From a virus (Duplodnaviria; Heunggongvirae; Uroviricota; Caudoviricetes), in IMG/VR virus record IMGVR_UViG_650377933_000001, positions 1-40,323 of that record: 40,323 nt of DNA. One strand, written 5' to 3'. The notes beneath the pieces are model-generated. The model was not told the origin of the DNA, did not search any database, and worked only from the letters and a program-made list of their open reading frames with translations. Shown in pieces: positions 4,487 to 39,795 of the stretch (within the stretch, counting starts at the first letter, position 1; each line of letters begins with the position of its first letter). The translations under genes were made by a program, and so were the position numbers.

Positions 4487-4870
4487 TCAGAATGGGATGG
4501 AATCGTCGTATACAGGAGTGTTCTGCTGGTTACTACTTTGCTGCTGCGGGCCATTTCCTGAAGCTGCAAATCCAATCTTTGCATTCAGTAATTCAAGAGT
4601 GATTGATTGACCATTTTGCCCCTGATAAACATCAACCCTGATGTTTTCTCCGGTAATTTCCACAATGCCACCTTCAACAAGAACACTACGGTAGTAATCC
4701 GCTTGCGCTCCCGGCTTGGCAAATACAACGGCGCTGTAGTTTGTCCATTCTTTCTTTTTTGTCTGGCGATCGTAATACTGAACTCCAGCACGGATGTTGA
4801 ATCCGATATTTTCCCCGGCCTGAAACTCTCTTGCGGGCTTGTTTAGTCTTACAGTAATCGAATGTGCCAT
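4487..4870 (-). CDS. ssb: Single-stranded DNA-binding protein (phage SSB)
   Basis: Start MAHSITVRLN overlaps the erf stop (TAATG); C-terminal acidic tail ...PVYDDSIPF is the hallmark SSB tail; Gly/Gln-rich linker. Confidence 0.75.
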   Translation of the reverse strand: MAHSITVRLNKPAREFQAGENIGFNIRAGVQYYDRQTKKKEWTNYSAVVFAKPGAQADYYRSVLVEGGIVEITGENIRVDVYQGQNGQSITLELLNAKIGFAASGNGPQQQSSNQQNTPVYDDSIPF

Positions 4871-5475
4871 TAAGCAGCCGCTCCTTCTAATTCGTCTCGT
4901 CTGATGTTGTAAACGTCCTGCGCTTTGTGCTGCTCCGGTGTGCCTTCGAGCATCTTCCACGCTTTGGCGAACGCCTGTTTAAGCTCTTCCACGGTGTTTT
5001 TCTGCAATGCTGCGTCAGTGAATGCTTTTAGAACCTGTTCAGGTGTAGGTGATGGTTTTGATTGCTTTGCTGCTGCGTTCTGCTGATGTTTATGCTCGTC
5101 GGTATCTGCATCTTTCGCATCATCAATGCCGAACAAACCATTGAGGCAATACTTGCGTGCATAAGAGCTTGTGGCTCCCGTAACTTGTGCAGAATCCATT
5201 CCTTTCTTGCTTTCTTCCTCTCGTGCAAGAGCGGTTGCCGTATGACTGTTTTCGCCATCGGTAATAGTTGCCGTGGCTTTCACGTAATACCGATCACCAA
5301 TCAACACAACTTCATCGCTGATTGATAAAAACAGGCCATTAAGCAGCGGCTTAACGCCTTCAAGAATATCTTCGCAGCTTCTGTATTTATATTTACCGAA
5401 TGAGTTGTACTGATTCTTTGGCGCGTTCAGATTCTCCTGAATAGCTGCCAGTCTTGCGTAAAATTCTTTGCTCAT
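4870..5475 (-). CDS. erf: Erf-family single-strand annealing recombinase
   Basis: Translation from MSKEFYARLAAIQENLNAPKNQYNSFGKYKYRSCEDILEGVKPLL matches recalled P22 Erf; the longer track ORF has an unsupported N-terminal extension. Confidence 0.85.
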   Translation of the reverse strand: MSKEFYARLAAIQENLNAPKNQYNSFGKYKYRSCEDILEGVKPLLNGLFLSISDEVVLIGDRYYVKATATITDGENSHTATALAREEESKKGMDSAQVTGATSSYARKYCLNGLFGIDDAKDADTDEHKHQQNAAAKQSKPSPTPEQVLKAFTDAALQKNTVEELKQAFAKAWKMLEGTPEQHKAQDVYNIRRDELEGAAA

Positions 5476-5485
5476 ATGATTGTTC

Positions 5486-5656
5486 TCAGAATGGACATGG
5501 CCCAAGGAAATAACGCTGATTTAATACTTCGACTCGGGACAAGTTAAGGAATACCCGCATTCCTTCGCGGTCACCATTATGGCGATACCAGAGAGCTTTC
5601 TGCGTGTACATGCGTCTCTGTAACTTGCTCTCCTTCACTGTGGTTGCAAGTGACAT
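5486..5656 (-). CDS. Small ORF (56 aa, MSLATTVKESK...), arf-position candidate
   Basis: Manual translation; AAGGAG RBS 7 nt upstream. Overlaps the 5577-5735 ORF in another frame, so only one is likely real. Confidence 0.3.
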   Translation of the reverse strand: MSLATTVKESKLQRRMYTQKALWYRHNGDREGMRVFLNLSRVEVLNQRYFLGPCPF

Positions 5657-5735
5657 GAATATCTCCTTCGTTATCGATTAATTCTTTCATCTGACGAATG
5701 AATTCTTCGTCTGACCAGTTATCTGTAAAACTCAT
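5577..5735 (-). CDS. Small ORF (52 aa, MSFTDNWSDEEF...), arf-position candidate
   Basis: Manual translation; ATG overlaps the kil stop (ATGA), suggesting translational coupling. Competes with the 5486-5656 ORF. Confidence 0.3.
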   Translation of the reverse strand: MSFTDNWSDEEFIRQMKELIDNEGDIHVTCNHSEGEQVTETHVHAESSLVSP

Positions 5736-5884
5736 TTCCTGCGATACCACGGAAGGTTGATAGCTGATTTCATCGCTTTATTTGCTTCAAGCCACATTTT
5801 TGAATCACCAATAAATCTGGCTATTACTGCTTTGTTCTGTGCAGCACGAAGCATCTGGTGATTGATGGCTATTTCATTGCGCAT
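5732..5884 (-). CDS. kil: Kil-like host division inhibitor (50 aa)
   Basis: Manual translation MRNEIAINHQMLRAAQNKAVIARFIGDSKMW... resembles the lambda Kil core as I recall it; lies just downstream of cIII as in lambda/P22. Confidence 0.5.
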   Translation of the reverse strand: MRNEIAINHQMLRAAQNKAVIARFIGDSKMWLEANKAMKSAINLPWYRRK

Positions 5885-6000
5885 AATAAGACCTCAACTC
5901 TTTTCCATCCGTCACGTAATTTACGGGTGATTCGTTCAAGTAAAGATTCATTTAATTGGAAGGCACCCATGCGAGCGCCTCCCGCGATTGCGTAAATCAT
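5869..6000 (-). CDS. cIII: CIII protein (FtsH inhibitor, 43 aa)
   Basis: Manual translation MIYAIAGGARMGAFQLNESLLERITRKLRDGWKRVEV...; the ESLLERITRKLRDGWKR stretch matches the lambda CIII core. Confidence 0.7.
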   Translation of the reverse strand: MIYAIAGGARMGAFQLNESLLERITRKLRDGWKRVEVLLCAMK

Positions 6001-6024
6001 GGGTGGTTCCTTATGTTGGTTTTA

Positions 6025-6993
6025 TTAGTAGGTTATTTTTGTTGCGAATACTTCGCCTTTTACGATGGCTGTTATGATATTTTTAGCAACATCTTCTGAT
6101 GCGCCAACCTTGATAAGGTCAGCAAGTATTTTGTTATTTACTTCTTTCCGGTGAGCTTTATCCTTTGCTCTACACTCTTCCTCTTCCTTGATTCTTTTTT
6201 CTTCTGCTATTCTGGCTTGCTCTTTTGCTTCAGCCTCGCGCCGGATTCGTTCAGCCTCCTCCTGTGCTTTTCGGCGTTCTGCTTCAATTGCCGCCTGCTT
6301 TTCTCTTTCAGCTCGTTCTGCTGCCTCTTTTGCTTCGCGCTGTGCTCGTTGCTCGGCTTCAATGCGTTCACGCTCTGCACGTTCCGCTGCGGCCTTAGCT
6401 TCTGCTTCTCGCCTTGCTGCTGCTTCAATTTCGTCTTTTGCCTTTGCTTCGGCTTCTGCTCTGGCTTTCTCTTCAGCTTCTCTTTTTAAGCGTTCTTCAT
6501 GCTCTCGCTTTTCCTGCTCCGCTTTGAGTCTTGCCTCTTCTCTTTGGCGGTCAAATTCGCGATCCATCAAAATAGCTATTTCATGGTCAGACTCAATTTG
6601 CTTTGCGAGAGCTTCAGCTGCTGCCTTAGCTTCTTCTTCGGCTTTAATCCGCGCCCGTTCTTCCTCATAATCAGTAAGAGGCTGGCGTGCCTTGGCTTTC
6701 AGCTCATCAAGGCGATCACGCACTGTCTTGCGGTTAGCATCAATTAGCTTTGGAATTTCCTTCAGTTCAGCAACAAGGTCTTTGCCAAGACCATCGAGAT
6801 ATGTTTTCGTCTGCGCAACTTTATACGCCAGAGAAGCGATCTCCTTTCTGCCCTTTGCCGTTGTGATATCAGGCACAAAGGACATAACTTCACGTTCAAC
6901 CTTTTGAAGGATTTCTTCAATCTGGTCGGCAGACTGAAATACAGTCATTGCATTTGCTTTTTCAATAACAACTAAATCTGTTACTTCACTCAT
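6025..6993 (-). CDS. Hypothetical E/A/K/R-rich coiled-coil protein (322 aa)
   Basis: ORF-track translation; GGAGGA RBS; structured N-terminal ~120 aa, then ~180 aa of low-complexity AEAEAKA/ERAERE repeats, then a short C-terminal domain. No family assigned. Confidence 0.6.
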   Translation of the reverse strand: MSEVTDLVVIEKANAMTVFQSADQIEEILQKVEREVMSFVPDITTAKGRKEIASLAYKVAQTKTYLDGLGKDLVAELKEIPKLIDANRKTVRDRLDELKAKARQPLTDYEEERARIKAEEEAKAAAEALAKQIESDHEIAILMDREFDRQREEARLKAEQEKREHEERLKREAEEKARAEAEAKAKDEIEAAARREAEAKAAAERAERERIEAEQRAQREAKEAAERAEREKQAAIEAERRKAQEEAERIRREAEAKEQARIAEEKRIKEEEECRAKDKAHRKEVNNKILADLIKVGASEDVAKNIITAIVKGEVFATKITY

Positions 6994-7003
6994 ATATCCT
7001 CCG

Positions 7004-7034
7004 TCAAAAAATTGCCCTCACACTGGAGGGCAAA
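7004..7034 (-). terminator. Rho-independent terminator (minus strand) upstream of the 322-aa gene
   Basis: Minus strand TTGCCCTC-CAGTGT-GAGGGCAA followed by TTTTTTG, ending a few nt before the RBS of the gene starting at 6993. Confidence 0.5.
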
Positions 7035-7165
7035 GAAGATTTCCAATAATCAGAACAAGTCGGCTCCTGTTTAGTTACGAGCGACATTGCTCCGTGTATT
7101 CACTCGTTGGAATGAATACACAGTGCAGTGTTTATTCTGTTGTTTATGCCAAAGATAAAGGCCGA

Positions 7166-7789
7166 CTATGCGGCCTCGGAAGGAAGTCCAATCATCTTAT
7201 TCAAATCTTCTACCCGTAAAGCAGGAAGTGCTGTACTTGCTTTATCTGCTTCTTTTGGTAGCAATTCTTTGCTTTCAGGCCAAACTTCAATAAGTCGCTT
7301 AACTGTTGTGACTGAGTTTAAAGCAGCCCATACATTTGATTCGATATCCTTTTTCTTGGCTTCAAGTTTTTGTTGCAATGCGCAGATTTCATCAAACCTT
7401 TTTGTTATTTCGTGCTCTGCGTCAAACATGCATTTATCTTTGGTCGGAGTAGGGAGCAATATATCTTCGCCGTTGCCGTCTTTCCCATATGAATGCCATC
7501 CAACCCTTCTGCCAGATACAGTCAGATAAATTGAAGTAGAACGAACATCGCATGAGTAAAATGAACATCCCAGTTTTTCAAGTTCTTCACTTATAGCTAC
7601 TAACTTGGAATATAAATGATCCACTTCCTCAGTTTTCTTTTTACCGCCAAACGCAATAACTCTGGCGTCAAGTGCAAGCTGGTTCTTTAACTTTGTTACT
7701 TCTTCAAGTTCAGTGAAAACCCCAGACTTAATTAAAGCGTTACGAGCGATTTCCTCTTTCATTCTCGTAGTTAAGCGGATTGATGACAT
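7166..7789 (-). CDS. Hypothetical protein (207 aa), pL-operon accessory gene
   Basis: Start chosen at MSSIRLTTRMKEE with GAGG 8 nt upstream; no recognisable catalytic motif by eye. Confidence 0.55.
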   Translation of the reverse strand: MSSIRLTTRMKEEIARNALIKSGVFTELEEVTKLKNQLALDARVIAFGGKKKTEEVDHLYSKLVAISEELEKLGCSFYSCDVRSTSIYLTVSGRRVGWHSYGKDGNGEDILLPTPTKDKCMFDAEHEITKRFDEICALQQKLEAKKKDIESNVWAALNSVTTVKRLIEVWPESKELLPKEADKASTALPALRVEDLNKMIGLPSEAA

Positions 7790-7999
7790 ATTAATTCCTC
7801 TCAAATAAGTGGTTTGCTGCCTAATTTCATTTTCTGGCGACCAACACAAGTCACACCCATTTCACTGCGTGGCTTGCGGTAGTAAAGATTGTGCCTGTCT
7901 TTTAACCACATCAGGCTCGGTGGTTCTCGTGTACCCCTACAGCGAGAAATCGGATAAACTCTATTCACCCCCTACAGAGAGAATGATGGAGATTCACCG

Positions 8000-8539
8000 A
8001 TGAGTAACTGGTGGCAGGAACTATTACGTTTCTTCCTGCGTGGTCTTACGCTACAACAGTTAATTCATATGCTTATTATTTTAATTGCCTTGATAATAAT
8101 CACCCCTGCATCAATTAAAGAGTGGGTAGATATAAGGAACCCAGAAATACTTCCAGATCACTGGATGTATTACGCAATGCTTTTGTGTATCAGTTATGTT
8201 CTGAACAGGGTGATGGAGTTTATATTTCTGGCATCTTCAGACAAATATAAAAAATATCTCAGTAAGAGAGATGAGGCTAAAGTAATTGTGGAGACTGAGC
8301 GCCTGTTCAATTCTCTGAGTATTCAGGAAAAAGAGGTTTTAGCATTTGCTGTTATGGCAAATAACAAAATCGTACTTAAGCACGGCGATCCGGTCGCTTT
8401 ATCTCTTATGAGAAAAGGCCTTCTCCATCGCTCAGGTGTGACTTACAGCGCGTCAGGTAAAGAGAAATTTGTTATACCTGACGTCTGGTTCCATGAGTGT
8501 TATATGCGCTTTGCTGGTAAAGCTGATGAGCTAATTTAG
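8000..8539 (+). CDS. sieB: SieB-like superinfection exclusion protein (179 aa)
   Basis: Plus-strand gene antisense to the pL operon immediately left of N, the position of sieB in lambda/P22; hydrophobic N-terminal segment; GGAG 9 nt upstream. Family call is from position and general resemblance, not alignment. Confidence 0.5.
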   Translation: MSNWWQELLRFFLRGLTLQQLIHMLIILIALIIITPASIKEWVDIRNPEILPDHWMYYAMLLCISYVLNRVMEFIFLASSDKYKKYLSKRDEAKVIVETERLFNSLSIQEKEVLAFAVMANNKIVLKHGDPVALSLMRKGLLHRSGVTYSASGKEKFVIPDVWFHECYMRFAGKADELI

Positions 8540-10171: not shown

Positions 10172-10357
10172 ATGTACAAGAAAGATGTTATCGACCACTT
10201 CGGAACCCAGCGTGCTGTAGCTAAAGCGTTAGGCATTAGCGACGCAGCAGTCTCTCAGTGGAAGGAAGTCATCCCAGAGAAAGACGCCTATCGACTGGAA
10301 GTCGTTACAGCTGGCGCCCTGAAGTATCAAGAAAGCGCTTACCGCAAAGCGGCATAA
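10172..10357 (+). CDS. cro: Cro repressor (P22 type)
   Basis: 61-aa translation MYKKDVIDHFGTQRAVAKALGISDAAVSQWKEVIPEKDAYRLEVVTAGALKYQ... matches recalled P22 Cro; GGAG RBS. Confidence 0.9.
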   Translation: MYKKDVIDHFGTQRAVAKALGISDAAVSQWKEVIPEKDAYRLEVVTAGALKYQESAYRKAA

Positions 10358-10362
10358 GCAAA

Positions 10363-10406
10363 TTGCTCTTTAACAGTCATGGTCCTCATTCCCGCCGAAA
10401 TGCGGG
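10363..10406 (+). promoter_or_regulatory. nutR (boxA GCTCTTTAACA plus boxB hairpin), followed by a candidate tR1
   Basis: TGCTCTTTAACAGTCATGGTCCTCATTCCCGCCGAAATGCGGGAA; downstream GCGCAT-AAGTTG-ATGCGC hairpin then U-rich tract (10415-10450) as possible tR1. Confidence 0.55.
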
Positions 10407-10465
10407 AATACAACGCGCATAAGTTGATGCGCATAACTTCTTATTTGTTAAGGAAATACTTACAT

Positions 10466-10759
10466 ATGGTTCGTGCAAACAAACGCAACGAGGCTCTAAG
10501 AATCGAGAGTGCGTTGCTTAACAAAATCGCAATGCTTGGAACTGAGAAGACAGCGGAAGCTGTGGGAGTTGATAAGTCGCAGATCAGCAGGTGGAAGAGG
10601 GACTGGATTCCAAAGTTCTCAATGCTGCTTGCTGTTCTTGAATGGGGCGTCGTTGACGACGATATGGCTAGATTGGCACGACAAGTTGCTTCGATTCTCA
10701 CCAATAAAAAACGCCCGGCGGCAACCGAGCGTTCTGATCAAATACAAATGGAATTTTAA
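10466..10759 (+). CDS. cII: CII transcriptional activator
   Basis: 97-aa translation MVRANKRNEALRIESALLNKIAMLGTEKTAEAVGVDKSQISRWKRDWIPKF... matches recalled lambda CII; the track ORF has an unsupported 5' extension. Confidence 0.9.
   Translation: MVRANKRNEALRIESALLNKIAMLGTEKTAEAVGVDKSQISRWKRDWIPKFSMLLAVLEWGVVDDDMARLARQVASILTNKKRPAATERSDQIQMEF
10475..10488 (-). promoter_or_regulatory. CII-binding site of pRE (TTGC-N6-TTGC)
   Basis: Minus strand TTGCGTTTGTTTGC inside the first codons of cII, as in lambda pRE. Confidence 0.5.
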
Positions 10760-10783
10760 CAACATCCAACGAGGTAATTATAT
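10705..10783 (-). ncRNA. oop: OOP-like antisense RNA with pO promoter and intrinsic terminator
   Basis: Minus strand ...GATCAGAACGCTCGGTTGCCGCCGGGCGTTTTTTATT matches the 3' half of lambda oop RNA as I recall it; candidate -10 TATAAT (plus 10778-10783). The 5' end is approximate. Confidence 0.4.
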
Positions 10784-11054
10784 GCGAAACAAAGGCTTTA
10801 ATCCACCTGATACACACAAAGAAGCTAAGCGTTTGCGCTTCCTTCGTTCCATTGATGAAAGAACTCAAATCTCTTTTGTGAAAGTTGCCAGAACTGAGCT
10901 TCTGAAGGCTGAGGCGAGGGCGTTGCTCCCGTCTCTACCAAAAGAGGAGGGATATACGTTCATTCCAAACGCATTTCTGGAAAAGCTTCTCAAAGAAGAC
11001 ATATCCGTAAGTCAGTTTAACGATGTTCTTAAGGTCTTTCGTCAAGGCAGGTAG
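10782..11054 (+). CDS. Hypothetical protein (90 aa) between cII and the O-like gene
   Basis: Start chosen at MRNKGFNPPDTHKEAKRLRF...; the track ORF upstream of this point overlaps cII in another frame. Confidence 0.45.
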   Translation: MRNKGFNPPDTHKEAKRLRFLRSIDERTQISFVKVARTELLKAEARALLPSLPKEEGYTFIPNAFLEKLLKEDISVSQFNDVLKVFRQGR

Positions 11055-11056
11055 TT

Positions 11057-12004
11057 ATGAGCAATACAGCAAAAATCTACGATTTCAGCGCCGCACACGA
11101 GCGCAGGAGCAACAGGATGGAGAACCAGAAAACTGGTTACATTCCGTTGTACCGGAGCATTCTGAAACAGTCATGGGCGAAAGATGTTTATCTTCGCACC
11201 CTGTGGGAAAACCTTCTCCTGAATGCCGCCAGAAAGCCATACAAAGCGAATTTCAAAGGTCATGAATGGCATCTGCAACCCGGTCAACTGGTTGTGACAG
11301 CAGCTGATTTAGGTCTTCAGTTATGCGACAGACATGGCAAGCCAGCAAGCCGTGATCAGGTTGAGCGGATGCTTCAGGTTTTTGTGAAAGAGGGGATGAT
11401 CTCCATTGATGGAGAGAAGCAAAAAGGTCGTGTGATAACCATCACAAATTACCATGAATATGCTCAAAAAATGGACGATTTACCCGCACATGAAGCCGCA
11501 CAAACAACCGCACATGATGCCGCACATGATGAATCCAGCAATGGCGCGGCTTTCAGCGTACATGCCGCACATGAAAGCGCACATGAAGCCGCACAAACAA
11601 CCGCACATCATGAACAAGAAGGTATTAACAAGAATATAAATAATACCCCCCTACCCCCCAATGGGGGAGGCGATGGGCAGGTTAAACCTGAACGTCGCAA
11701 GGCAGAACGAATCGACTACGAATCCTTCCTGAACGCCTACAACACCGAAGTCGGTGACAGACTGCCACACGCTGTTGCGGTCAACGAGAAACGCAAACGC
11801 CGCCTGAAGAAAATCATCCCGCAACTGAAAACGCCAAACGTGGACGGTTTCAGAGCGTATGTCAGGGCGTTTGTGCATCAGGCCAAGCCGTTTTACTTCG
11901 GAGACAACGACACGGGCTGGACGGCCGATTTTGATTACCTGCTGAGGGAAGACTCGTTAACGGGGGTACGGGAAGGTAAGTTTGCAGACAGGGGGATTGC
12001 ATGA
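11057..12004 (+). CDS. Replication initiator, lambda O-like
   Basis: 315 aa; internal iteron array and AT-rich tract (origin inside the gene, as in lambda O); directly followed by a DnaB-type helicase. Confidence 0.75.
11483..11660. repeat. Candidate replication origin: iteron direct repeats, AT-rich tract and G/C palindrome
   Basis: Units of CCGCACATGA(A/T)G/CCGCACAAACAA in two blocks; 31-nt near-perfect direct repeat CATGAAGCCGCACAAACAACCGCACAT(G/C)ATG at 11490-11520 and 11582-11612; then AACAAGAAGGTATTAACAAGAATATAAATAATAC and CCCCCCTACCCCCCAATGGGGGAGG. Confidence 0.55.
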
Positions 12005-30721: not shown

Positions 30722-32071
30722 ATGGCTACGTGGCAACAGGGTATTAATTCTGGTGGTTTTCTGGCTGGAATTGGTGCGCAAAATGAGAATGCGCCAAAGG
30801 CAAGCGACATTAACGCAACGCTTGGTCTGATTCGCGAAAACAATGAACTGGCTCGCTCAGGTGCAAATAACGTTGGTCTGACCGCGTTACGTGGTCTGGC
30901 TGGAGTTGCTGATATTTACAATCAGGAACAGCAACAGAAAGCTATTAGTGCGTTCAATAAGGTTCACGCTGATGCATGGGCTTCTGGTGATCCATCTGGA
31001 CTATTTAAGTTTGCCCAGGAAAATCCAGCGTTTGTTGCACAGGCACAACAGGCGTTTTCCGGTCTTAATGAGCAGCAACGCAACGATATGGGCGATTTAG
31101 CCATGAGGGCTAACGTCGCTCTTTCCCAGGGACCGGAAGCCTACAGTAAATTCATTACTGACAACAAGGACAGGTTAAATCGCGTGGGGGCGAATGCTGA
31201 CTGGATGATTCAGACAGGTATCCAGAATCCAGAGCAGCTATCACACATGCTGACTACTATGTCTCTCGGTGCACTTGGGCCAGAAAAGGCTTTTGCTGTT
31301 CAGGATAAGATGGTTGGTCGCCAGCAGGAGCAGCAAAGAATTAACGAAACCATTCGCAATAATGACATGACGAATGCGAGGGCTATTAGGGGGCAGGATC
31401 TTTCCTATAAGGCTCAAATGGCAAGACTGAATCACGACAAGTATGTGTTTAAGCAGTCACAGGCGGCCCTTGAAAGAGCAGGACAACTTCAGGATATGGA
31501 TGTTTTGTCTCTTAACTCACAGATAGCAGCGACGGGAATTGATCCTCTAACCGGTAAAGCTGCAACGTCAGCCAGAATGTCTCAGGCTAAGAGATGGCTT
31601 GATGGCAACAATAATTACAACAATGCGTTGATTACTGGTGAGCGAGGGATAGAGAAAATTGATTCTTTGCTTGGTAAGAAGGAGCTTGAAGGTATCGGTC
31701 GCTTCGAAGGAAGAAATATAGATGGCTTCACAAGTGCTGAAGGGCTTGCAAACCGTAATGCGATAGAAGAATTAAAGTCGGGTGCGTTTGTCCAGAACGT
31801 GCAGACTATGCGAGGTATGGGTAGCCTCTCCAATGCTGAAGGCCAAAAACTGGAAAACCTGATCGCGAAACTCGATATAACACAGCCTGAAGAGGTCGTC
31901 AGAAAACAGTTATCTGAAATCCGATCGCAATATTCTGTATTTCAAAAGGTTGCAGCAAGGGAGGCTGAATCAATGGGATATAGTTCATCAGGTTATGACA
32001 CATATGTTAGTGAGCGAAAATCAGGAAGCGACAGCAATAAGTCCGGTTTCTCGTCTTTATGGGGTGATTAA
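30722..32071 (+). CDS. Ejection protein (P22 gp20 type)
   Basis: 449 aa in the gp20 slot. Confidence 0.7.
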
Positions 32072-34239
32072 TGGCTAAAGCATGGAAAGATGTTATCGCT
32101 TCTCCACAGTATCAGGCGTTAACTGAAGAACAGAAAGCACAGGCTCAAGCGCAATATTTTGATGAGGTTGTTGCCCCTAAGGCTGGTGACAAATGGGCTG
32201 AAGCAAGAGATCAGTTTTATGCAGCATACCCTCCGCATCAGCAGAAGAAAGAAGAACCATCATTGATGCAACAAGCTGGCGATTGGCTCACAGGTGGTCA
32301 AAGTGCAGGGCAAATTGCAGAACAGGCTGGTCGTGGTCTGGTAAACATACCATTTGACGTATTGCAGGGTGGCGCAAGTCTGATTAATGCAATCAGCCAG
32401 GGGCTTGGTGGCCCCAAGGTTTTGGATGATGTTTATCGTCCTGTCGATCGACCTACAGACCCTTACGCGCAAGCCGGTGAAACAATTGGTGGGTATCTCC
32501 TGCCAATTGGCACAGCGGCAAAAGCTGCTGGAGCGCCAGCAAAGCTCGCTGGAGATATCGGTTCCGCAGGAAACATGATTGCAGGTTCTCTTGCTGATGC
32601 TGCAAATCAGGAGGGCGACTTTGCACAAAATGCTGCCATTAACGGTGGTATCAATATTGGTGCTCAGGGGATACTTTCTGGGGCTGGAAGGATCTTAACC
32701 TCTAAATCACCTCAAGTTCTTGGTGGCGGGGCAATAAATTCCGCTGCTGATGTTTCGAAAATGGCAAAGTCTGGTACAGGAAGAGAGATTATTGCCAGAC
32801 AGTCAGCTAATGTGTCAGACGAAATAGCAAAAGCAGCAGATACTGCTGGAATAGATATCAACGCATTAACTCCTGGCATGAGATCAGGTAGTCGTGGTCT
32901 TGCTCAGGCGGAGGGGATTCTGGCGTCAAAGCCCGGAATTACACAGGATGCACACACCAAAGCATTCAGTGAAATAGAGTCGAAATTTAACTCAGCATTG
33001 GATGAGTTTGGGGCTGAAGCAGGAACTGCATCAGAAAAAAGTGCAGCCATAAAACAAAGGGTTTTGGCAAGTATTGATAAAATGAAAAATTCAGAAAAGG
33101 CCGCATGGGATAGCGTCCGCTCCACGATGCCTGACGCAAAGGCCAGAATGTCAAACCTGAACGCTACAATTCAGGGTGATATTTTGGCTGGCATGCCGCT
33201 AACTCCTGAGATGAAACAATTCGCATCTGCTTATGCTAAAACTGGTAAAAAAGGAATCACGTTTGATGCCATGAAGGCATGGCGAAGTAAACTTGCTGAC
33301 GCAGAGCAGAAGTATATAAGGTCTGGTGAGGCAAATACGGCAAGGCGCATGGCTGAGCTTCGTGATGCAGCAACGGAAGATATGCGCATAATGGCTCAAA
33401 ATGGCGGTTTTCTTGATGACTGGCAAAAAGCTAATGATCTGTCAAAGGCAAGATTTACAGCACAAGAACAGGCTGAAGCAGCGTTTGGTAGAGACCTTGC
33501 AACTGATCAGTTGGTAACTAATGGATCTAAGGCGTTGCAGGGTTCAGCAAAAAGTGGAACAGGTCAGTTCCATAAAATAATAAGCGCCCTACCTGAGTCG
33601 GAACGCGCGCCAGCAATTGCATCAATATTACAAGATGCGGTATCGCAAGGGGTACGCGGAGGTAAGTCTGAAGAGGCTGGAATTAAGCATATCGCGACTA
33701 TTCTTACCCCACAAAACGTGAAGGCAATTAGTCGATATTCTCCAGAGCTTGGTAGGATTGCTAGGGGGTTTGGAGAACTTGCAAGAGCAGCAACAAAGCC
33801 ACTTCGATATGTTGAACAAACAGGGCGCTCTATGCCAGCCATTAGCACTCTTGAGAATGGCCTTCATCCAGTTTTAGAGAGCGTATTGTCTGGCGCTTTT
33901 CCAACCGCTGGCGCTATCGCAGGGTTCTCTGGAGGAGGTGTTATTGGAGCAATAGTGGGTGGCGCTGCAGGTGGAGCAATTGATGCAATAGCAAAAGGAT
34001 CGATAGCGAAATTATCCGCAACCAGAAGTGGTCGTTACGCTATTGAAAAGGCTGTTCAAGAGGCGACAAAGGCAGTTAAAGTTGGGGCAAGTGATGGCGC
34101 ATTAGCGGCGGCGGAACGCAGATTTATGGCAAATAAGGCCGCCGTAAAAGCAATTCGCGATGCACTAGGAAACGAAGAGTTCCAGCGTTTGTCGAGGGCT
34201 GGGATTGTGGCATCGCTAAGCGGAATGACACAGGAGTAA
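32071..34239 (+). CDS. Ejection protein (P22 gp16 type, 722 aa)
   Basis: Largest ejection-module ORF in the gp16 slot; Ala/Gly-rich segments; I recall P22 gp16 as shorter, so this may carry an extension. Confidence 0.65.
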
Positions 34240-34334
34240 TTAGTCGTCCACGGATGGATTGATCTTATCTCGTGCTTCACATTTGAATGGTTTGTCATTA
34301 GGATGTTTCCGGTTTTTTAGATATGGAAATTGAT

Positions 34335-34754
34335 ATGAAGAGGATTATTAGCGTCGTTGCTGGCGCTATCATGTTATCTGGGTGCGCAACTATTGTTGGT
34401 GATGAAACGCAACTTGTGCAAGTGAACAGCAACCCTTCCGGTGCGAGCTTTAAGGTAAAAGATGAATCAGGCGTGATTGTTGCGCAAGGCAAGACTCCAC
34501 AAGGAGTAACTCTTGCCAAGTCAGATGGTAGTTATTTTGGCAAAAAGAGCTACCAGATCACTATGGAAAAGGATGGGTACGAACCAGTTACCCTGCCAAT
34601 CAAAGCCAATGCTAATGGTTGGTATATTGGTGGAAACCTTGTGTTTGGTGGGTTAATTGGTTGGCTTGCTGTAGATCCTTTTAATGGTGGGATGTATACA
34701 TTGAAGCCAAAAGAGGCAAATGCATCTCTTATACCTTCTACGAAGCAAGATTAA
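34335..34754 (+). CDS. Putative lipoprotein (139 aa), lysogenic-conversion or exclusion candidate
   Basis: Signal peptide with lipobox MKRIISVVAGAIMLSGC; followed by a strong intrinsic terminator, so probably expressed as its own unit. Confidence 0.6.
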   Translation: MKRIISVVAGAIMLSGCATIVGDETQLVQVNSNPSGASFKVKDESGVIVAQGKTPQGVTLAKSDGSYFGKKSYQITMEKDGYEPVTLPIKANANGWYIGGNLVFGGLIGWLAVDPFNGGMYTLKPKEANASLIPSTKQD

Positions 34755-34761
34755 GAAATGA

Positions 34762-34787
34762 AACCCACCGTCAGGTGGGTTTTTTAT
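34762..34787 (+). terminator. Rho-independent terminator after the lipoprotein gene
   Basis: AACCCACC-GTCA-GGTGGGTT followed by TTTTTAT. Confidence 0.6.
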
Positions 34788-34798
34788 AAGGAGAAATC

Positions 34799-34984
34799 AT
34801 GACCATAGAAGAACGCCTGAACAACATTGAGTTGAACCAAACCCTGCTTGACCAGCGACTTTCAGATCTTGAGCTTAAAGATCTTGATGCGCAAATATCA
34901 GAAGCAGAAGCCAAGCTCTCCAGCTTAAACCACCGCAAGAAGCAAATCCGCAACAGAATTACTCAGGGACGCGGAAGCTGTTGA
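34799..34984 (+). CDS. Small hypothetical coiled-coil protein (61 aa)
   Basis: AAGGAG RBS 5 nt upstream of ATG; 3' end overlaps the convergent 34959-35168 ORF by 26 nt. Confidence 0.35.
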   Translation: MTIEERLNNIELNQTLLDQRLSDLELKDLDAQISEAEAKLSSLNHRKKQIRNRITQGRGSC

Positions 34985-35168
34985 GGTGGGATGCTAGGTC
35001 TCTATCGTTAAAATCAAGGCTGCTAATCATTTCATTGTAAATGGCGTTTTTATCTTCCATTGGCAGTCTTGAGTAAACCAGACACAGAGCATATTTCAGG
35101 GAGTTTAGCTCTTTCTCTAGCTCTTCCTTGCTTGACGTTGTTGACTTAATAAACTGTTTTTTATTCAT
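34959..35168 (-). CDS. Small hypothetical protein (69 aa) translationally coupled to mnt
   Basis: ATG overlaps the mnt stop (ATGA); no family recognised. Confidence 0.4.
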   Translation of the reverse strand: MNKKQFIKSTTSSKEELEKELNSLKYALCLVYSRLPMEDKNAIYNEMISSLDFNDRDLASHLNSFRVPE

Positions 35169-35416
35169 TTTGCATCCTTACCATACATGGTCTTTAGCGT
35201 CTCAACATCGTGTTCAAGATCTATCAATCGTGATGCTATAGTTGCAAGGTCTAGTGCTTGAATGTGTTTATTTTTTTCGGTCCACGCTTCAAGTGCCGCG
35301 ACCATCTCAGCATTTAATGAACGAGAATTAGCCTCAGCCAGTTCAATAAGACGTTCCTTTATCTCTACAGGAAGCCTCAGATTCACTTGAGGGTTTTTGT
35401 ACTTACGATCAGACAT
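35165..35416 (-). CDS. mnt: Mnt-like ribbon-helix-helix repressor (83 aa)
   Basis: N-terminal ...NPQVNLRLPVEIKERLIELAEANSRSLNAEMVAAL fits the Arc/MetJ/Mnt RHH pattern; same length as P22 Mnt; divergent from arc/ant as in P22 immI. Confidence 0.7.
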   Translation of the reverse strand: MSDRKYKNPQVNLRLPVEIKERLIELAEANSRSLNAEMVAALEAWTEKNKHIQALDLATIASRLIDLEHDVETLKTMYGKDAK

Positions 35417-35419
35417 CGG

Positions 35420-35520
35420 CGCATCCTGAATAATTTTTTACCACAGGATATGTAGGTATCTATTGACTATCAATGCGTACCTAAATACTATGTATGCGTA
35501 CCACATACAACGGAGGATGC
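35420..35520. promoter_or_regulatory. immI-like control region: candidate Pant promoter and Arc/Mnt operator repeats
   Basis: -35 TTGACT (35463-35468), 17-nt spacer, -10 TACTAT (35486-35491); palindrome ATTGACTATCAAT; direct repeat ATGCGTACC x2; inverted GTATG...CATAC. Confidence 0.5.
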
Positions 35521-35521
35521 A

Positions 35522-35662
35522 ATGAAGGTAAAAACACTGCGTATGCCAGAGAAGCTAGAAAAAATTCTTGAAGAAAAAGCAAAGGAAGAGTGTCGCTCAT
35601 TCAGCGCAGAAGTAATTAAACGGGTGCTGGACAGCCTGAGGAGAGAGGGGATAACGGTGTGA
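35522..35662 (+). CDS. arc: Arc-like ribbon-helix-helix repressor (46 aa)
   Basis: Manual translation MKVKTLRMPEKLEKILEEKAKEECRSFSAEVIKRVLDSLRREGITV; GGAGGA RBS; beta-strand then two helices typical of RHH; precedes ant. Confidence 0.55.
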   Translation: MKVKTLRMPEKLEKILEEKAKEECRSFSAEVIKRVLDSLRREGITV

Positions 35663-35760
35663 TTCGCTTGGATGCGGCAAAGAAATCAAAACAGTGAAGC
35701 CCCAACTGCGGGAACAGTCAGGGCTTCGGTATCGTAAAACCACGCATAGGAATTAACGAC

Positions 35761-36684
35761 ATGACGAGTGTAGCAATTGCAGAACATACAATCAACGTTC
35801 CATTCCACGGAACAAATCTCTTTTTGGTCAGCATTAACAATGAACCTTACGTTCCTATGAAACCCGTTGTAGAAGGCATGGGTATGGTTTGGGCTGCTCA
35901 ATTTGTTAAATTAAAACAGAGATTTGTCAAAGGTATTTCGGAAATCGAAATACCTTCTGCTGGCGGTAAACAGTTAATGATATGCCTTGCCTTTCGTAAG
36001 TTTGCGGCTTGGCTTTCAAGCATTCAGCCTAACAAAGTCCGCCCTGAAATCCGCGACAAGGTAATCCGGTATCAGGAAGAGTGTGACGATGTGCTCTACG
36101 AGTACTGGACTAAAGGTCATGTAGTTAACCCACGCAAAGCTAAAAAGGCGTTGCCGGGTAAAATCACCACTGAACAGCAGGAAGCCATTAAACAACTCGT
36201 CATGAGTCGCGGTCAGTCTCTGCCAAAGGAAAAACAGGCTAAGGCGATGATCACCATGTGGTCGTCACTGAAATCCCATTTTGGATGTTCATACAAAGAA
36301 ATCAGTGAGGAGCAGTTTACCGAAGCACTGTCACTTGCAGCTCGAGTTCCGCTTGAAGGTGAGTTCATTGGCAAACAAGAGAAGAAAACCAACGAGCTTT
36401 CTGCAAAAGAAGCAAACAGCCTTGTATGGTTATGGGATTATGCCAACCGCTCACAGGCATTATTCCGCGAACTGTATCCGGCATTAAAACAAATTCAATC
36501 GAACTATTCCGGCAGATGCTACGACTACGGTCATGAATTCTCGTATGTTATCGGAATGGCGAGAGACGTTTTAATCAATCACACACGAGATGTTGATATC
36601 AATGAGCCAGACGGACCAACGAATCTTTCCGCATGGATGAGACTTAAGAATAAAGAATTACCTCCTTCAGTACATAACTACTGA
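35761..36684 (+). CDS. ant: Antirepressor Ant (307 aa)
   Basis: Large ORF downstream of arc in the P22 immI arrangement; followed by an intrinsic terminator. Call rests mainly on synteny and size. Confidence 0.7.
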
Positions 36685-36794: not shown

Positions 36795-37304
36795 TTACCT
36801 ACCATGATTCTCATGATAACCATAGGTCTTTTCAGCCTCACGCCTTACAGCAATTGCATCATCGAGACTCTTAAAGTATCCGAGATTAATGCGCTTCCCT
36901 GCGTCGCTAATATATGCCACCCACTTTTTATGGGTCTTATGCCATGAAACCCCAGCGCACCCAGATGTATTGTTTGTGTATTTAGATTTGTTTTTTAGGT
37001 TTTCACCGAGACTAACTAGACGCAGGTTGTCTATTGAATTATTTAACCCGTTACCATCTTTATGGTCAATTTGCATTCCGGAAGGGATTTCACCATAAAA
37101 CATTTCCCATATTATCCTATGGGCGGCGTATATTTTATCTTGATACCTAATAATTATATAAGAGGTTTTCCTGTTCTTGTCCTTGAATATATGTCCTGCA
37201 GGCTTTTCTTTAGAGATATTAAACATTTTGGGTCTTGAAAGATATTGGTCACTCCAGTACAGGAGTCCATCGTCTTTTAATACGAATACTTCGTTCCAGT
37301 TCAT
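36795..37304 (-). CDS. HNH homing endonuclease with C-terminal AP2-like DNA-binding domain (169 aa)
   Basis: Start at MNWNEVFVLK with AAAGGTGG RBS; HNH motif ...QIDHKDGNGLNNSIDNLRLV...; C-terminal ...SGCAGVSWHKTHKKWVAYI...GYF...AIAVRREAEKTYGY resembles AP2 domains. The longer track ORF runs antisense into the tailspike start. Confidence 0.75.
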   Translation of the reverse strand: MNWNEVFVLKDDGLLYWSDQYLSRPKMFNISKEKPAGHIFKDKNRKTSYIIIRYQDKIYAAHRIIWEMFYGEIPSGMQIDHKDGNGLNNSIDNLRLVSLGENLKNKSKYTNNTSGCAGVSWHKTHKKWVAYISDAGKRINLGYFKSLDDAIAVRREAEKTYGYHENHGR

Positions 37305-37392
37305 GTTAACCACCTTTAAATAAAGTGCACTCATTATACAAAAAAACATGCTAGCAATGAATATTGCTGGCTTAACATATAGAGAAATTAAA

Positions 37393-39795
37393 ATGACAGA
37401 TTCAATAAATGCCAATGTTGTAGTGAGTATGCCTTCGCAACTCTTCACTATGGCGCGTTCTTTTAAAGCGGTTGCCAATGGCAAAATTTATATCGGTAAA
37501 ATTGACACTGACCCGGTAAATCCAGAAAACCAGATTCAGGTTTATGTAGAGAATGAAGATGGCTCTCACGTTCCTGTTGCACAGCCAATCATCATTAACG
37601 CTGGCGGGTATCCGGTATATAACGGACAGATTGCCAAATTCGTAACTGTACAGGGCCATTCTATGGCTGTTTATGATGCGTATGGTGCGCAGCAGTTCTA
37701 TTTTCCTAATGTGCTGAAGTATGACCCTGATCAGTTACGGCAGCAATTAGAAGACCCGGATGGTTCTAAAAAATATCCAGAATTGCAGATTGCACGATGG
37801 CGTGATGACAAAGACGTTCGCGGTTGGGGGGCTATCAGTGATGGAATAACTGACGCTACTGAGGCATTCTCTAACGCAGGCTATAGAATGTTTGTTCCTG
37901 ATGGCGATTTTGCAGTAAATACTCTCGAAGTTGATGTATCTTCTGCTCGAGGTATTGGGAGGATTGTTGCAGATAATGGCTCTCTTATTTCAGTTTCTCG
38001 TCTGCTTGAAACTGACAAACTTGCGCAGAGAAAAATGATGGAACCTTTTTTTGGTTTTCAGGGAGAAACAAACACAGAAATTTACCCTAATGCCAGAAAT
38101 GCGTTACAGGGGATCGCATATTGCCGTGTTAATGGCATTGAAAAACTATTTGTCACACAACGGCCTGTTGGGCCGACCTGGTCAGATAAAGAAAGAGTTC
38201 GTATTGTTGAGTTTAATCTTTATGATGATGGAAGGGTAGTAAACCATGTTGCGTATTCTCCAGAATTAAACCTTGGGCACGGTTTTGATCTTTCTGCCAT
38301 GGTGGAGAATGGTCAAGTATATTTATATACATCAAGTGTAACCAATTCAGGTGAAGATGGGGAGTCTGCAGGCAAAGGGTTTAGTAAAATAACTTGGCGA
38401 GGGGCAGGAACAACTCAGTCTGACGTAAAAAGTTATAATGTATGGGGGATTACTGGTAGCGGTCACCCATTTCAAGATTACAATCGTGCAGGAATTGCCA
38501 TTTCTTCTGACGGTCGTCTTTTAATAATGGTTAATACACCAAAGAGTGATGCCGCTAAACGAACTGTATTTATATACGATAAAATATCAATTGATAAACT
38601 TGAAGATAAAACATTAGCAAACCCCATGTTTGTTTGGGAAATGAGCGACTCACCTTCTGAAGGCGCTTACTCTGTACAAGGTATTGCGTCTGATGGAAGA
38701 TATATACATATACTTAAGGGAGGGGCTAACGCTTTTGGAAAGCATCATATCTTTACATATGATTTAACAGGTAATTTACTAAGAAAATTAGATATCGATG
38801 ATGCAAGGTCGCAATATGGGCGCGATGGGTTGCTTAACCATCCAACTCTTGGGAATCCAGCCAGATTTGAGCCGGAAGGTCTAACTATTCGTGGTGAAGA
38901 AATAATTATAAGCTGCATAGAAACATGGAGGGCAGGAGCTAATATTGTAAACTGGCGTGGAAGAAGATGGGCTGCATCATCCATTGAGACTTCTGGAATA
39001 ATTGGTGTCCCTCCATCAAATGGCTCTTATTGGGTAGAAACAACCAAGGATGCAAATTCTGGAGATTGGAGTCCTGAAATAGATTATGGATGGGGAAGTA
39101 GCTATTCTCTTGAGAAAAAGACAATTTACTCTATACGACCAGCGACTGGTAACAACGATGATCAGAACCTTAATTCTGGCATAACCAATGCTTCAAGTAA
39201 TGCAGGTGTAGATGCCGGAGAAAGCGGGCGAAATATATCATTTAGATGGCGCAATGCTTTTAATATTGTTGCATTTAGCGAACGTCTTGGTGAATACTTC
39301 AACGCTATTATGTATGATAATAGCTCAAGACTAAGAATATACGATCAGCAAAACGGTAGTGATAACACTGTTTATGGCTCAATCCAGGCACTATTTACGT
39401 CATCATTTAAGGGATTGATTTTAAGGGGTAGGGGGGTATCAGCATCAAATAGTTCCTATATTAGGTTACATTCATCTGATGATCCAAACTACCCAAATTC
39501 GATCATTGAAGGAACAAGAACAGATGGAAGTTTTTCCAGGGAAACAGATTCAAACGGAACCACTACATTCGCATCGGACTCAGAGCACGAACCGTTGCGT
39601 ATCAGAAGGGCTTCAGATGGTTTGTTGTTTGCATACGAGAAAGTAAGAGGTACAACTCTCTTTGGAATTTATAGAGGCTCCGGTTCACCTGAGGGTGTTG
39701 TGACCGCACCTCAGGGGTCAATGTATATTGATTATAATGGTGATTGGTATCAAAAGAAAACAGGAACAGGAAACACAGGATGGGTGTTAAAATAG
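37393..39795 (+). CDS. Tailspike protein: P22 gp9-like N-terminal head-binding domain fused to a divergent receptor-binding domain (800 aa)
   Basis: From [60 protein letters not shown]... the first ~115 aa match recalled P22 gp9; the remainder does not resemble the P22 endorhamnosidase as I recall it. Confidence 0.8.

Follow-up and report, generated by a model that had tools for sequence, protein, structure and literature searches.

A candidate lysogenic-conversion lipoprotein gene in the gene 16–mnt interval of a P22-like phage

Introduction

What does a lipoprotein gene do at the place where phage P22 carries its exclusion gene sieA? This question is raised by the IMG/VR virus record IMGVR_UViG_650377933_000001 (Caudoviricetes), a DNA stretch of 40,323 nucleotides (nt) that is called the window here at its full length and that comes from a P22-like (Lederbergvirus) phage or prophage of Escherichia coli or Salmonella. 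Between the last ejection gene and the repressor gene mnt, the window holds a gene for a lipoprotein of 139 amino acids (aa) and two small open reading frames (ORFs) of 61 and 69 aa, hereafter ORF61 and ORF69. The original prediction, made by eye from the sequence, had joined the three into one candidate exclusion or conversion module.

Lipoproteins of the cell envelope that are encoded by morons, among them Cor, Llp and Bor, are classic agents of lysogenic conversion and phage exclusion. Cor (phi80, N15, HK022) and Llp (T5) are phage outer-membrane lipoproteins that inactivate FhuA, and the moron-encoded outer-membrane lipoprotein Bor of lambda is said to give the lysogen serum resistance. 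The gene studied here is already known, without an assigned function, as gene 15 of phage epsilon34 and has been in GenBank since 2008. The epsilon34 genome paper noted merely that it matches bacterial genes lacking assigned function, and named the region from gene 16 to gene 9 the "ant moron", a region in rapid flux (PMC2629481).

Here we consider it reasonably probable that the lipoprotein is the product of a moron, made in the lysogen independently of the late genes and altering the lysogen's envelope, and that ORF61 and ORF69 are separate units.

Results

Boundaries and signals of the lipoprotein gene

The lipoprotein gene occupies 34335-34754 on the plus strand, and its product falls into phrog_6823. 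As the original prediction had stated, the protein begins with a signal peptide ending in a lipobox and the gene has a terminator of its own; the ORF list, the alignment and RNA folding all bear this out. Signal peptide and lipobox are encoded at 34335-34385. The N-terminus reads MKRIISVVAGAIMLSG followed by CATIVG, with MKR as the n-region, then a hydrophobic core, then the lipobox L-S-G-C at residues 14-17. This fits the bacterial lipobox pattern [LVI][ASTVI][GAS]C, and Cys17 (34383-34385) is invariant in 40 of 40 homologues; the protein is predicted to be lipidated at this residue. The position after it (+2) is Ala (C-A-T-I), nearly invariant in the family, and not Asp. By the E. coli +2 rule, Ala here would route the protein through the Lol system to the inner leaflet of the outer membrane. 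An in-frame ATG at 34323 was considered as an alternative start and rejected, as the copy in Gally, a prophage of E. coli LF82, has a stop codon there.

Upstream of the gene, a consensus scan placed a candidate sigma-70 promoter at 34276-34304 on the plus strand (TTCACA, 17 nt, TAGGAT; 9 of 12 matches). When the window was aligned with epsilon34 and Gally, its -35 and -10 blocks were the sole conserved islands in an otherwise diverged upstream region. Downstream, an intrinsic terminator lies at 34760-34789 on the same strand, with a hairpin at 34760-34783 and then a U run. The hairpin folds with a free energy (dG) of -16.2 kcal/mol (z -4.2), none of 200 shuffled sequences folds as well, and the terminator is annotated as rho-independent in the epsilon34 and Emek records. 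Read on the minus strand, the same hairpin has a dG of -14.2 and a weak T tract, and it could also end the minus-strand mnt-ORF69 transcript described below.

Since the gene is framed by a promoter-like site and a terminator of its own, we read the lipoprotein unit as a moron. Two further properties of morons were found. The gene is absent between the same flanking genes in P22, Emek and Kapi1 and present in epsilon34 and Gally, and published RNA sequencing (RNA-seq) documents expression of the Gally copy, which is identical at 137 of 139 residues, from the repressed prophage.

Expression of the Gally copy in LF82

The expression values come from RNA-seq of all Gally genes in E. coli LF82 (S1 Table of PMC9928086) and are given as log2(FPKM+5), FPKM being fragments per kilobase per million reads. 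The caption names only lysogeny broth (LB), Dulbecco's modified Eagle medium (DMEM) and macrophage; we took samples B1/B6 as DMEM and MB1/MB6 as macrophage. GALLYPH_14, the Gally copy of the lipoprotein gene, stands at 6.2 and 4.8 in LB, at 9.8-10.5 in B1/B6 and at 9.4-11.0 in MB1/MB6, while the ejection gene directly upstream stays at 3.6-4.2 in all samples and the c2 repressor of Gally lies at 8.9-12 overall and at 10.5-12 in DMEM and macrophages (PMC9928086). With its upstream neighbour silent, GALLYPH_14 thus does not depend on the late operon for its transcription from the prophage. That transcription varies with conditions: it is weak in LB, but in DMEM and macrophages it exceeds that of the silent late genes ~100-fold. 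To the LF82 authors Gally was "devoid of morons", since they tested for morons in LB alone, where GALLYPH_14 reaches 3.3 times background against a cut-off of 5 times (PMC9928086). Bor in LF82 is likewise induced in DMEM (PMC9928086).

Family and genomic contexts

The lipoprotein is 99% identical in amino acids to epsilon34 gp15 (ACF16641) and to GALLYPH_14, and all its copies are annotated as hypothetical. Only three phages (four records) among 50,697 phage records carry it, namely epsilon34, Gally and vB_EcoP-720R6. These share with the window the 99% identity, the ant moron place between gene 16 and mnt, and the terminator; they differ in that mnt follows the lipoprotein gene directly, whereas in the window ORF61 and ORF69 lie between the two. 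The P22-type lipoprotein is also present in 125 of 5426 complete E. coli genomes (~2%), and the identical protein occurs on ~1000 contigs of the protein collection. A search at 90% clustering gave 715 matches, and a profile search gave 5415 clusters (50% identity) at E <= 1e-3, 2016 of them at E <= 1e-10. The lipoprotein thus belongs to a large, uncharacterised bacterial family. Many relatives are longer and have Pro/Ala-rich tails, and one has an OmpA-type barrel; a Pfam scan of the longer relatives found no domain besides that barrel. A literature search found no paper that names the protein accessions.

The contexts of close relatives (61-81% identity) were compared. In lambdoid prophages of E. 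coli (ED1a type) and Proteus, the relative lies between the gene of the tail chaperone gpT and the tape measure gene, and both of these copies whose flanks were read have their own terminator. In another lambdoid prophage the relative lies between gpI and gpJ, and a further one is next to a prophage remnant. Others occupy non-phage chromosomal loci, in Enterobacter and on a metagenome contig. At two unrelated non-phage loci a TehB or TehB-like (YeaR) gene stands directly downstream on the opposite strand (L021 6870-7478, L023 6499-6861), probably by coincidence. In E. coli ED1a-type prophages with the lipoprotein (L006, L008, L009, ~10260-11420), an OmpC/NmpC-like porin gene lies between tail genes M and L, so that this tail gene cluster carries two outer-membrane morons.

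Selection and predicted structure

The lipoprotein is under strong purifying selection. The ratio of nonsynonymous to synonymous substitution rates (dN/dS) is 0.01-0.13. Against the epsilon34 copy, the proportion of differing synonymous sites (pS) is 0.23 and that of nonsynonymous sites (pN) 0.00. Relatives at other slots are saturated at synonymous sites but still 64-78% identical in amino acids.

An AlphaFold2 (AF2) model built from 40 sequences shows a confident beta-sandwich at residues 25-93, with block means of the predicted local distance difference test (pLDDT) of 79-95 over residues 21-90. A C-terminal hairpin (residues 121-131) packs back onto the sandwich. Between the two lies a Gly-rich hydrophobic segment (residues 94-118, 34614-34688; NGWYIGGNxxFGGLIGWLxVDPFNGGMY), the best-conserved part of the family. 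Because its hydropathy is moderate, we read this segment as a putative membrane-dipping or oligomerisation hairpin and not as a transmembrane helix.

The fold is compatible with a PEGA, carboxypeptidase-regulatory or transthyretin-like sandwich. The PEGA profile (PF08308) itself scores 17.6 bits against a gathering threshold of 20.8; among 40 relatives, five match it at E < 0.01 and none above the threshold, and PEGA does not include the conserved Gly-rich segment at the C-terminal side. Searches of the Protein Data Bank (PDB) with single sequences and with the family profile found no match and no relative with a solved structure, and Foldseek against the PDB returned nothing at E < 1e-3. A BFVD fold search returned one unnamed phage protein (E 1.6e-9) and generic sandwiches. 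A transthyretin/PEGA-like fold says nothing about the function of the lipoprotein.

Comparison with known exclusion and conversion proteins

Pfam, NCBIfam, PHROGs and PADLOC scans of the three proteins returned PHROGs of no assigned function and sub-threshold noise only. PADLOC-DB had no match for the lipoprotein or ORF69, and for ORF61 gave coiled-coil noise only (PbeC, JetC; 12-16 bits). The Pfam scan of the lipoprotein found no Bor, TraT or Llp match. Cor models touch the signal peptide only: NF047972 of NCBIfam scores 13.3 bits over residues 1-30 against a cut-off of 31, and phrog_1119, the Cor family in PHROGs, gives E 7e-4 over residues 1-20. BLASTP against SieA found a 31-residue chance match of hydrophobic segments (E 0.039), and the sieA PHROG was not matched. 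Altogether, no link in sequence or fold to Cor, Llp, Bor, TraT or SieA was found, and the homology to known exclusion lipoproteins on which the original prediction had partly made its case depend did not appear. A literature search returned no paper tying a PEGA or transthyretin-like lipoprotein to prophage exclusion, and the SieA paper (PMC10883804) does not mention the lipoprotein gene.

Likeness to these systems is one of kind and place. Cor, Llp and the window protein are all small phage-encoded lipoproteins, the last predicted to reach the outer membrane, and the Cor cassette too sits in the late or tail region of a temperate phage. They differ in that there is no sequence relationship, the window lipoprotein is about twice the length of the 78-position Cor models, and it has a beta-sandwich, a Gly-rich segment and a huge non-phage family. 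Like lambda Bor, it would be an envelope lipoprotein expressed from a prophage moron, but Lambda_Bor of Pfam does not match it at E <= 0.1. The HK97 gp15 moron was reportedly placed in the gpT-to-tape-measure slot by Cumby et al. in 2012. With P22 SieA and HK97 gp15 the lipoprotein shares the slots (gene 16–mnt and gpT–tape measure) and the character of an independently expressed moron; in contrast, those two are integral inner-membrane proteins without a lipobox, no similarity to them was found, and sieA lies on the opposite strand. SieA proteins, moreover, have diversified into types ~25% identical (PMC10883804), whereas the window lipoprotein is nearly invariant.

What the lipoprotein may do

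The reading that we favour would run as follows. A self-contained promoter-gene-terminator cassette would have been inserted at the late-operon end of a P22-like prophage. Its product would be made as a prolipoprotein, lipidated at Cys17 and sent by Lol to the inner leaflet of the outer membrane, where the mature protein, a small transthyretin/PEGA-like beta-sandwich, might be held flat on the membrane by its N-terminal lipid and the Gly-rich hydrophobic hairpin. Transcription would proceed from the prophage apart from the late genes, weakly in LB and strongly in DMEM and inside macrophages; this independence suggests that the lysogen's envelope is altered, rather than virion assembly or lysis being served. 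Given the near-invariance of the protein across differing receptors and delivery machines, and its many non-phage relatives, its partner is most likely a conserved component of the host envelope, rather than a protein brought in by an infecting phage. As for the phenotype, the envelope might be protected under host-like conditions, or other phages might be excluded at the outer membrane or in the periplasm. ORF69 would be co-transcribed with mnt in the lysogen, and ORF61 read in the opposite, late-operon direction. The lipoprotein is a good candidate for lysogenic conversion, and the breadth of its family, its invariance and its expression (weak in LB, strong in DMEM) fit a conversion factor at least as well as an exclusion factor.

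Several points weigh against this. In DMEM and macrophages, expression goes up jointly in all five genes at the right end of Gally, so the induction could be regional and not promoter-specific. The expression values were measured in an orthologous prophage, and upstream of the gene this prophage agrees with the window in the -35 and -10 blocks only. Curing of Gally left macrophage survival unchanged (PMC9928086), so no phenotype is attached to the lipoprotein gene. In the AF2 model, residues 96-115 are of low confidence (pLDDT < 50), and the hydropathy of the Gly-rich segment is moderate only; lipidation, outer-membrane location and the membrane-hugging pose are derived from sequence rules and a monomer model. 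Finally, the searches returned no informative homologue of the lipoprotein.

Dedicated superinfection exclusion is possible, though we hold it to be distinctly less probable than a general change of the lysogen's envelope. The lipoprotein, acting at the periplasmic side of the outer membrane, would block a receptor or the delivery of DNA across the envelope; the logic would be that of Cor/Llp, gp15 and SieA, the protein an unrelated one. In its favour, the lysogen expresses the gene, which occupies slots of known exclusion genes: that of sieA in P22 and, reportedly, the gpT–tape measure slot of gp15 in HK97. In each of the three phage architectures the gene adjoins that of an envelope-crossing protein (gp16, tape measure, gpJ). 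The ORF list of the window, too, contains no sieA, which only 22 of 66 P22-like phages have (PMC10883804). However, lom and porin genes are tail-region morons as well and do not serve exclusion, so the position cannot decide the matter by itself. Against exclusion stands also the lack of similarity to Cor, Llp, SieA or PADLOC models. Furthermore, a near-identical protein is found in phages of different tailspikes and hosts, and podophage and siphophage copies are 64-78% identical, so the lipoprotein cannot be matched to the delivery protein encoded beside it. The weak expression in LB and the thousands of relatives outside phages, of which some have long extra domains, also speak against such a dedicated role.

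A broader form of this idea is rather doubtful: the epsilon34-gp15 family might be a new broad superinfection-exclusion or envelope-gating lipoprotein, acting from the periplasmic side of the outer membrane on a conserved host component without which neither podophage ejection proteins nor the tape-measure or tail-tip proteins of siphophages could cross the envelope. If true, such gating would explain why unrelated temperate phages have repeatedly captured the gene beside their DNA-delivery genes.

We regard a role as a lytic-cycle accessory as improbable. The protein would then assist lysis or release, or guard progeny from re-adsorption to debris; it would be made mainly by antiterminated late transcription, and its prophage transcription would be incidental. 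The gene does have late-operon orientation in every phage context seen, and with late genes immediately upstream it would also be reached by late read-through. Yet its own conserved promoter-like site and terminator, a transcript level in the lysogen two orders of magnitude (~100-fold) above the late genes, and relatives at non-phage loci do not suit this role, and its rarity (the three phages, in four records, of the 50,697 searched) makes it dispensable for the lytic cycle.

ORF61 and ORF69 as separate units

ORF61 and ORF69, like the lipoprotein, were found as the original prediction had described them. ORF61 encodes a coiled coil of 61 aa at 34799-34984 on the plus strand, in late-operon direction, and belongs to phrog_7586. 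Its strong ribosome-binding site (RBS), AAGGAG at 34788-34793, lies 5 nt ahead of the ATG. The protein has no signal peptide and no transmembrane or hydrophobic segment. Its homologues form 42 clusters, all from P22-like prophages of Escherichia, Salmonella or Serratia, and the N-terminal extension annotated in Kapi1 is not conserved. Some homologues are labelled as XhlA haemolysin (PF10779); this assignment was rejected, the score being 14.1 bits against 34.7, with no membrane segment and a coiled-coil match.

ORF69 encodes a small protein of 69 aa at 34959-35168 on the minus strand (phrog_16466; 46 homologue clusters), predicted to be soluble and cytoplasmic; its AF2 model has three helices (pLDDT 76). 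No informative homologue was found in PHROGs, the homologue clusters or a PDB sequence search. The two ORFs converge, and their 3' ends overlap by 26 nt.

Both ORFs are real coding genes, more than chance ORFs. In a comparison of lineages 70-79% identical in DNA, with the other two frames as control, in-frame dN/dS was 0.06-0.15 for ORF61 and 0.06-0.16 for ORF69, against 0.7-3.5 in the control frames. The possibility that ORF61 is a mere antisense 3' untranslated region of the mnt transcript is ruled out, as its frame is under purifying selection.

The start of ORF69 overlaps the stop codon of mnt (ATGA), and ORF69 follows mnt-family genes of quite different alleles in Kapi1, in Emek (past an extra orf77) and in the surveyed loci L014 (Serratia) and L015. 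By its overlap and constant place, ORF69 is thus the distal gene of the mnt operon. In P22, orf59a is likewise the next gene distal to mnt on this strand, but it shows no sequence similarity to ORF69 (BLASTP E 0.53). ORF61, in turn, starts at 34799, only 15 nt from the hairpin base of the lipoprotein terminator (34783), which leaves no room there for a promoter. Elsewhere it comes after minus-strand genes, with gaps of ~27 nt. Given these short gaps, read-through in late-operon direction probably accounts for the transcription of ORF61. An mnt-ORF69 transcript that ended at the shared hairpin would run antisense to the whole of ORF61, a layout that may recall sar and ant.

The stretch holding the terminator hairpin and the ORF61 RBS (34757-34800, ~46 nt) is ~96% identical in the otherwise unrelated phages phiv205-1, E212 and EC.P3, which suggests a use as recombination joint when modules are exchanged.

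To see how the three genes are combined, we surveyed the 80 best IMG/VR loci, of which 74 are P22-like. The lipoprotein gene is directly followed by mnt in most loci, by ORF61 in nine, and by ORF61 and ORF69 in three; in ~30, an extra minus-strand gene (Gally-13-like or epsilon34-gp14-like) lies ahead of it. The lipoprotein gene occurs without ORF61 and ORF69 in epsilon34 and Gally. Conversely, Emek and Kapi1 have the terminator, ORF61 and ORF69 but no lipoprotein gene, and ORF61 and ORF69 are without it in L014 and L015 as well. ORF61 has another partner in L004 and is present in two copies in L017, although ORF61 and ORF69 stay paired in three diverged lineages. No single full-length match to the exact three-gene combination of the window was found in the phage or E. 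coli genome collections or among the 80 IMG/VR loci, which makes the window a new mosaic of parts already known. That the three genes form one functional exclusion or conversion module, as first proposed, deserves next to no credence and is already contradicted by their distribution: they are adjacent here, in a few E. coli prophages and in 3 of the 80 loci, and in the diverged lineages ORF61 and ORF69 do keep together as a convergent pair, but across these phages and loci the genes assort independently, a terminator sits between the lipoprotein gene and ORF61, and ORF69 is on the other strand, in the mnt operon.

The interval and its immI setting

On its upstream side the interval is bordered by the gene of the last ejection (DNA transfer) protein, which stands where P22 has gene 16 (32071-34239, plus strand, 722 aa). 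Its product has no Pfam match of its own; its RefSeq homologues are named "DNA transfer protein", and the preceding ejection gene carries a gp20-like Inj_translocase domain (Pfam, E 1.9e-109). The downstream border is mnt, an Arc/Mnt-family repressor gene (35165-35416, minus strand; Pfam Arc, E 3.2e-10) and the first gene of the operon that holds ORF69. A consensus scan placed divergent promoter-like sites at 35445-35491. Beyond them lie arc (35522-35662, plus strand; Pfam Arc-family match) and ant (35761-36684, plus strand; Pfam P22_AR_N/C matches), with the sar antisense RNA between them at 35693-35759 on the minus strand (RF00262, 76.6 bits against a threshold of 43). With divergent mnt and arc-ant and with sar, the immI region is canonical and looks complete. 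Sar was the only hit of the Rfam scan and lies outside the three ORFs. In base composition, the interval shows a mild GC dip alone (40-44% against 46-50%).

Between ant and the tailspike gene, as with Kapi1_066 in phage Kapi1, lies an HNH endonuclease gene (36795-37484, minus strand; PF13392 E 2e-20, with a weak AP2 match). The longest tailspike ORF runs from 37348, yet the P22-like N-terminus begins at 37393, so the tailspike and HNH genes probably overlap less than the ORF list implies.

Record comparison confirmed that the interval from gene 16 to mnt is the place of sieA in P22, where it sits together with orf59a. In many P22-like prophages a phrog_6067 gene (153-171 aa) fills the sieA position, for example GALLYPH_13 (L025 4391-4906, minus strand) and the gene at L014 4512-4973 (minus strand). 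GALLYPH_13 was compared with SieA and is unrelated to it; in LF82 it is likewise raised, with log2 values of 7.9-10.3 in DMEM and macrophages against 6.0-6.3 in LB. The other slot genes of related phages all belong to PHROGs of no assigned function. In L017, a Salmonella prophage (GCA_032301735.1), the interval (4500-8100) has grown to ~3.5 kb with seven ORFs, among them two ORF61 paralogues (5001-5177 and 6983-7168) and a SocA_Panacea-domain gene (6056-6499). This cargo indicates that the slot can hold toxin-antitoxin or defence-like genes.

Discussion

The lipoprotein gene is ordinary cargo of a variable region, in a slot already known as hypervariable. What is new here is the diagnosis of its product as a lipoprotein, the boundaries of the cassette, its recurrence at three phage slots and at chromosomal loci, and the size of its family. 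The link to existing expression data, the coding proof for ORF61 and ORF69 and the placing of ORF69 in the mnt operon are also new. The exclusion-or-conversion reading of the original prediction stands in part. The sieA slot and a near-identical copy transcribed while the late genes are silent support it; exclusion homology and a single module do not.

The lipoprotein belongs to none of the known families of envelope morons; its sequence hardly changes between Salmonella and E. coli phages, and lambdoid prophages carry it at two further slots. Its Gally copy, in the Crohn's-associated strain LF82, is among the top-transcribed genes of that prophage in cell-culture medium and in macrophages, and it was overlooked because its expression in LB is weak. 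The gene is thus a cheap and well-defined target for a phenotype screen, and a positive result would give a name to a large, uncharacterised family of bacterial lipoproteins.

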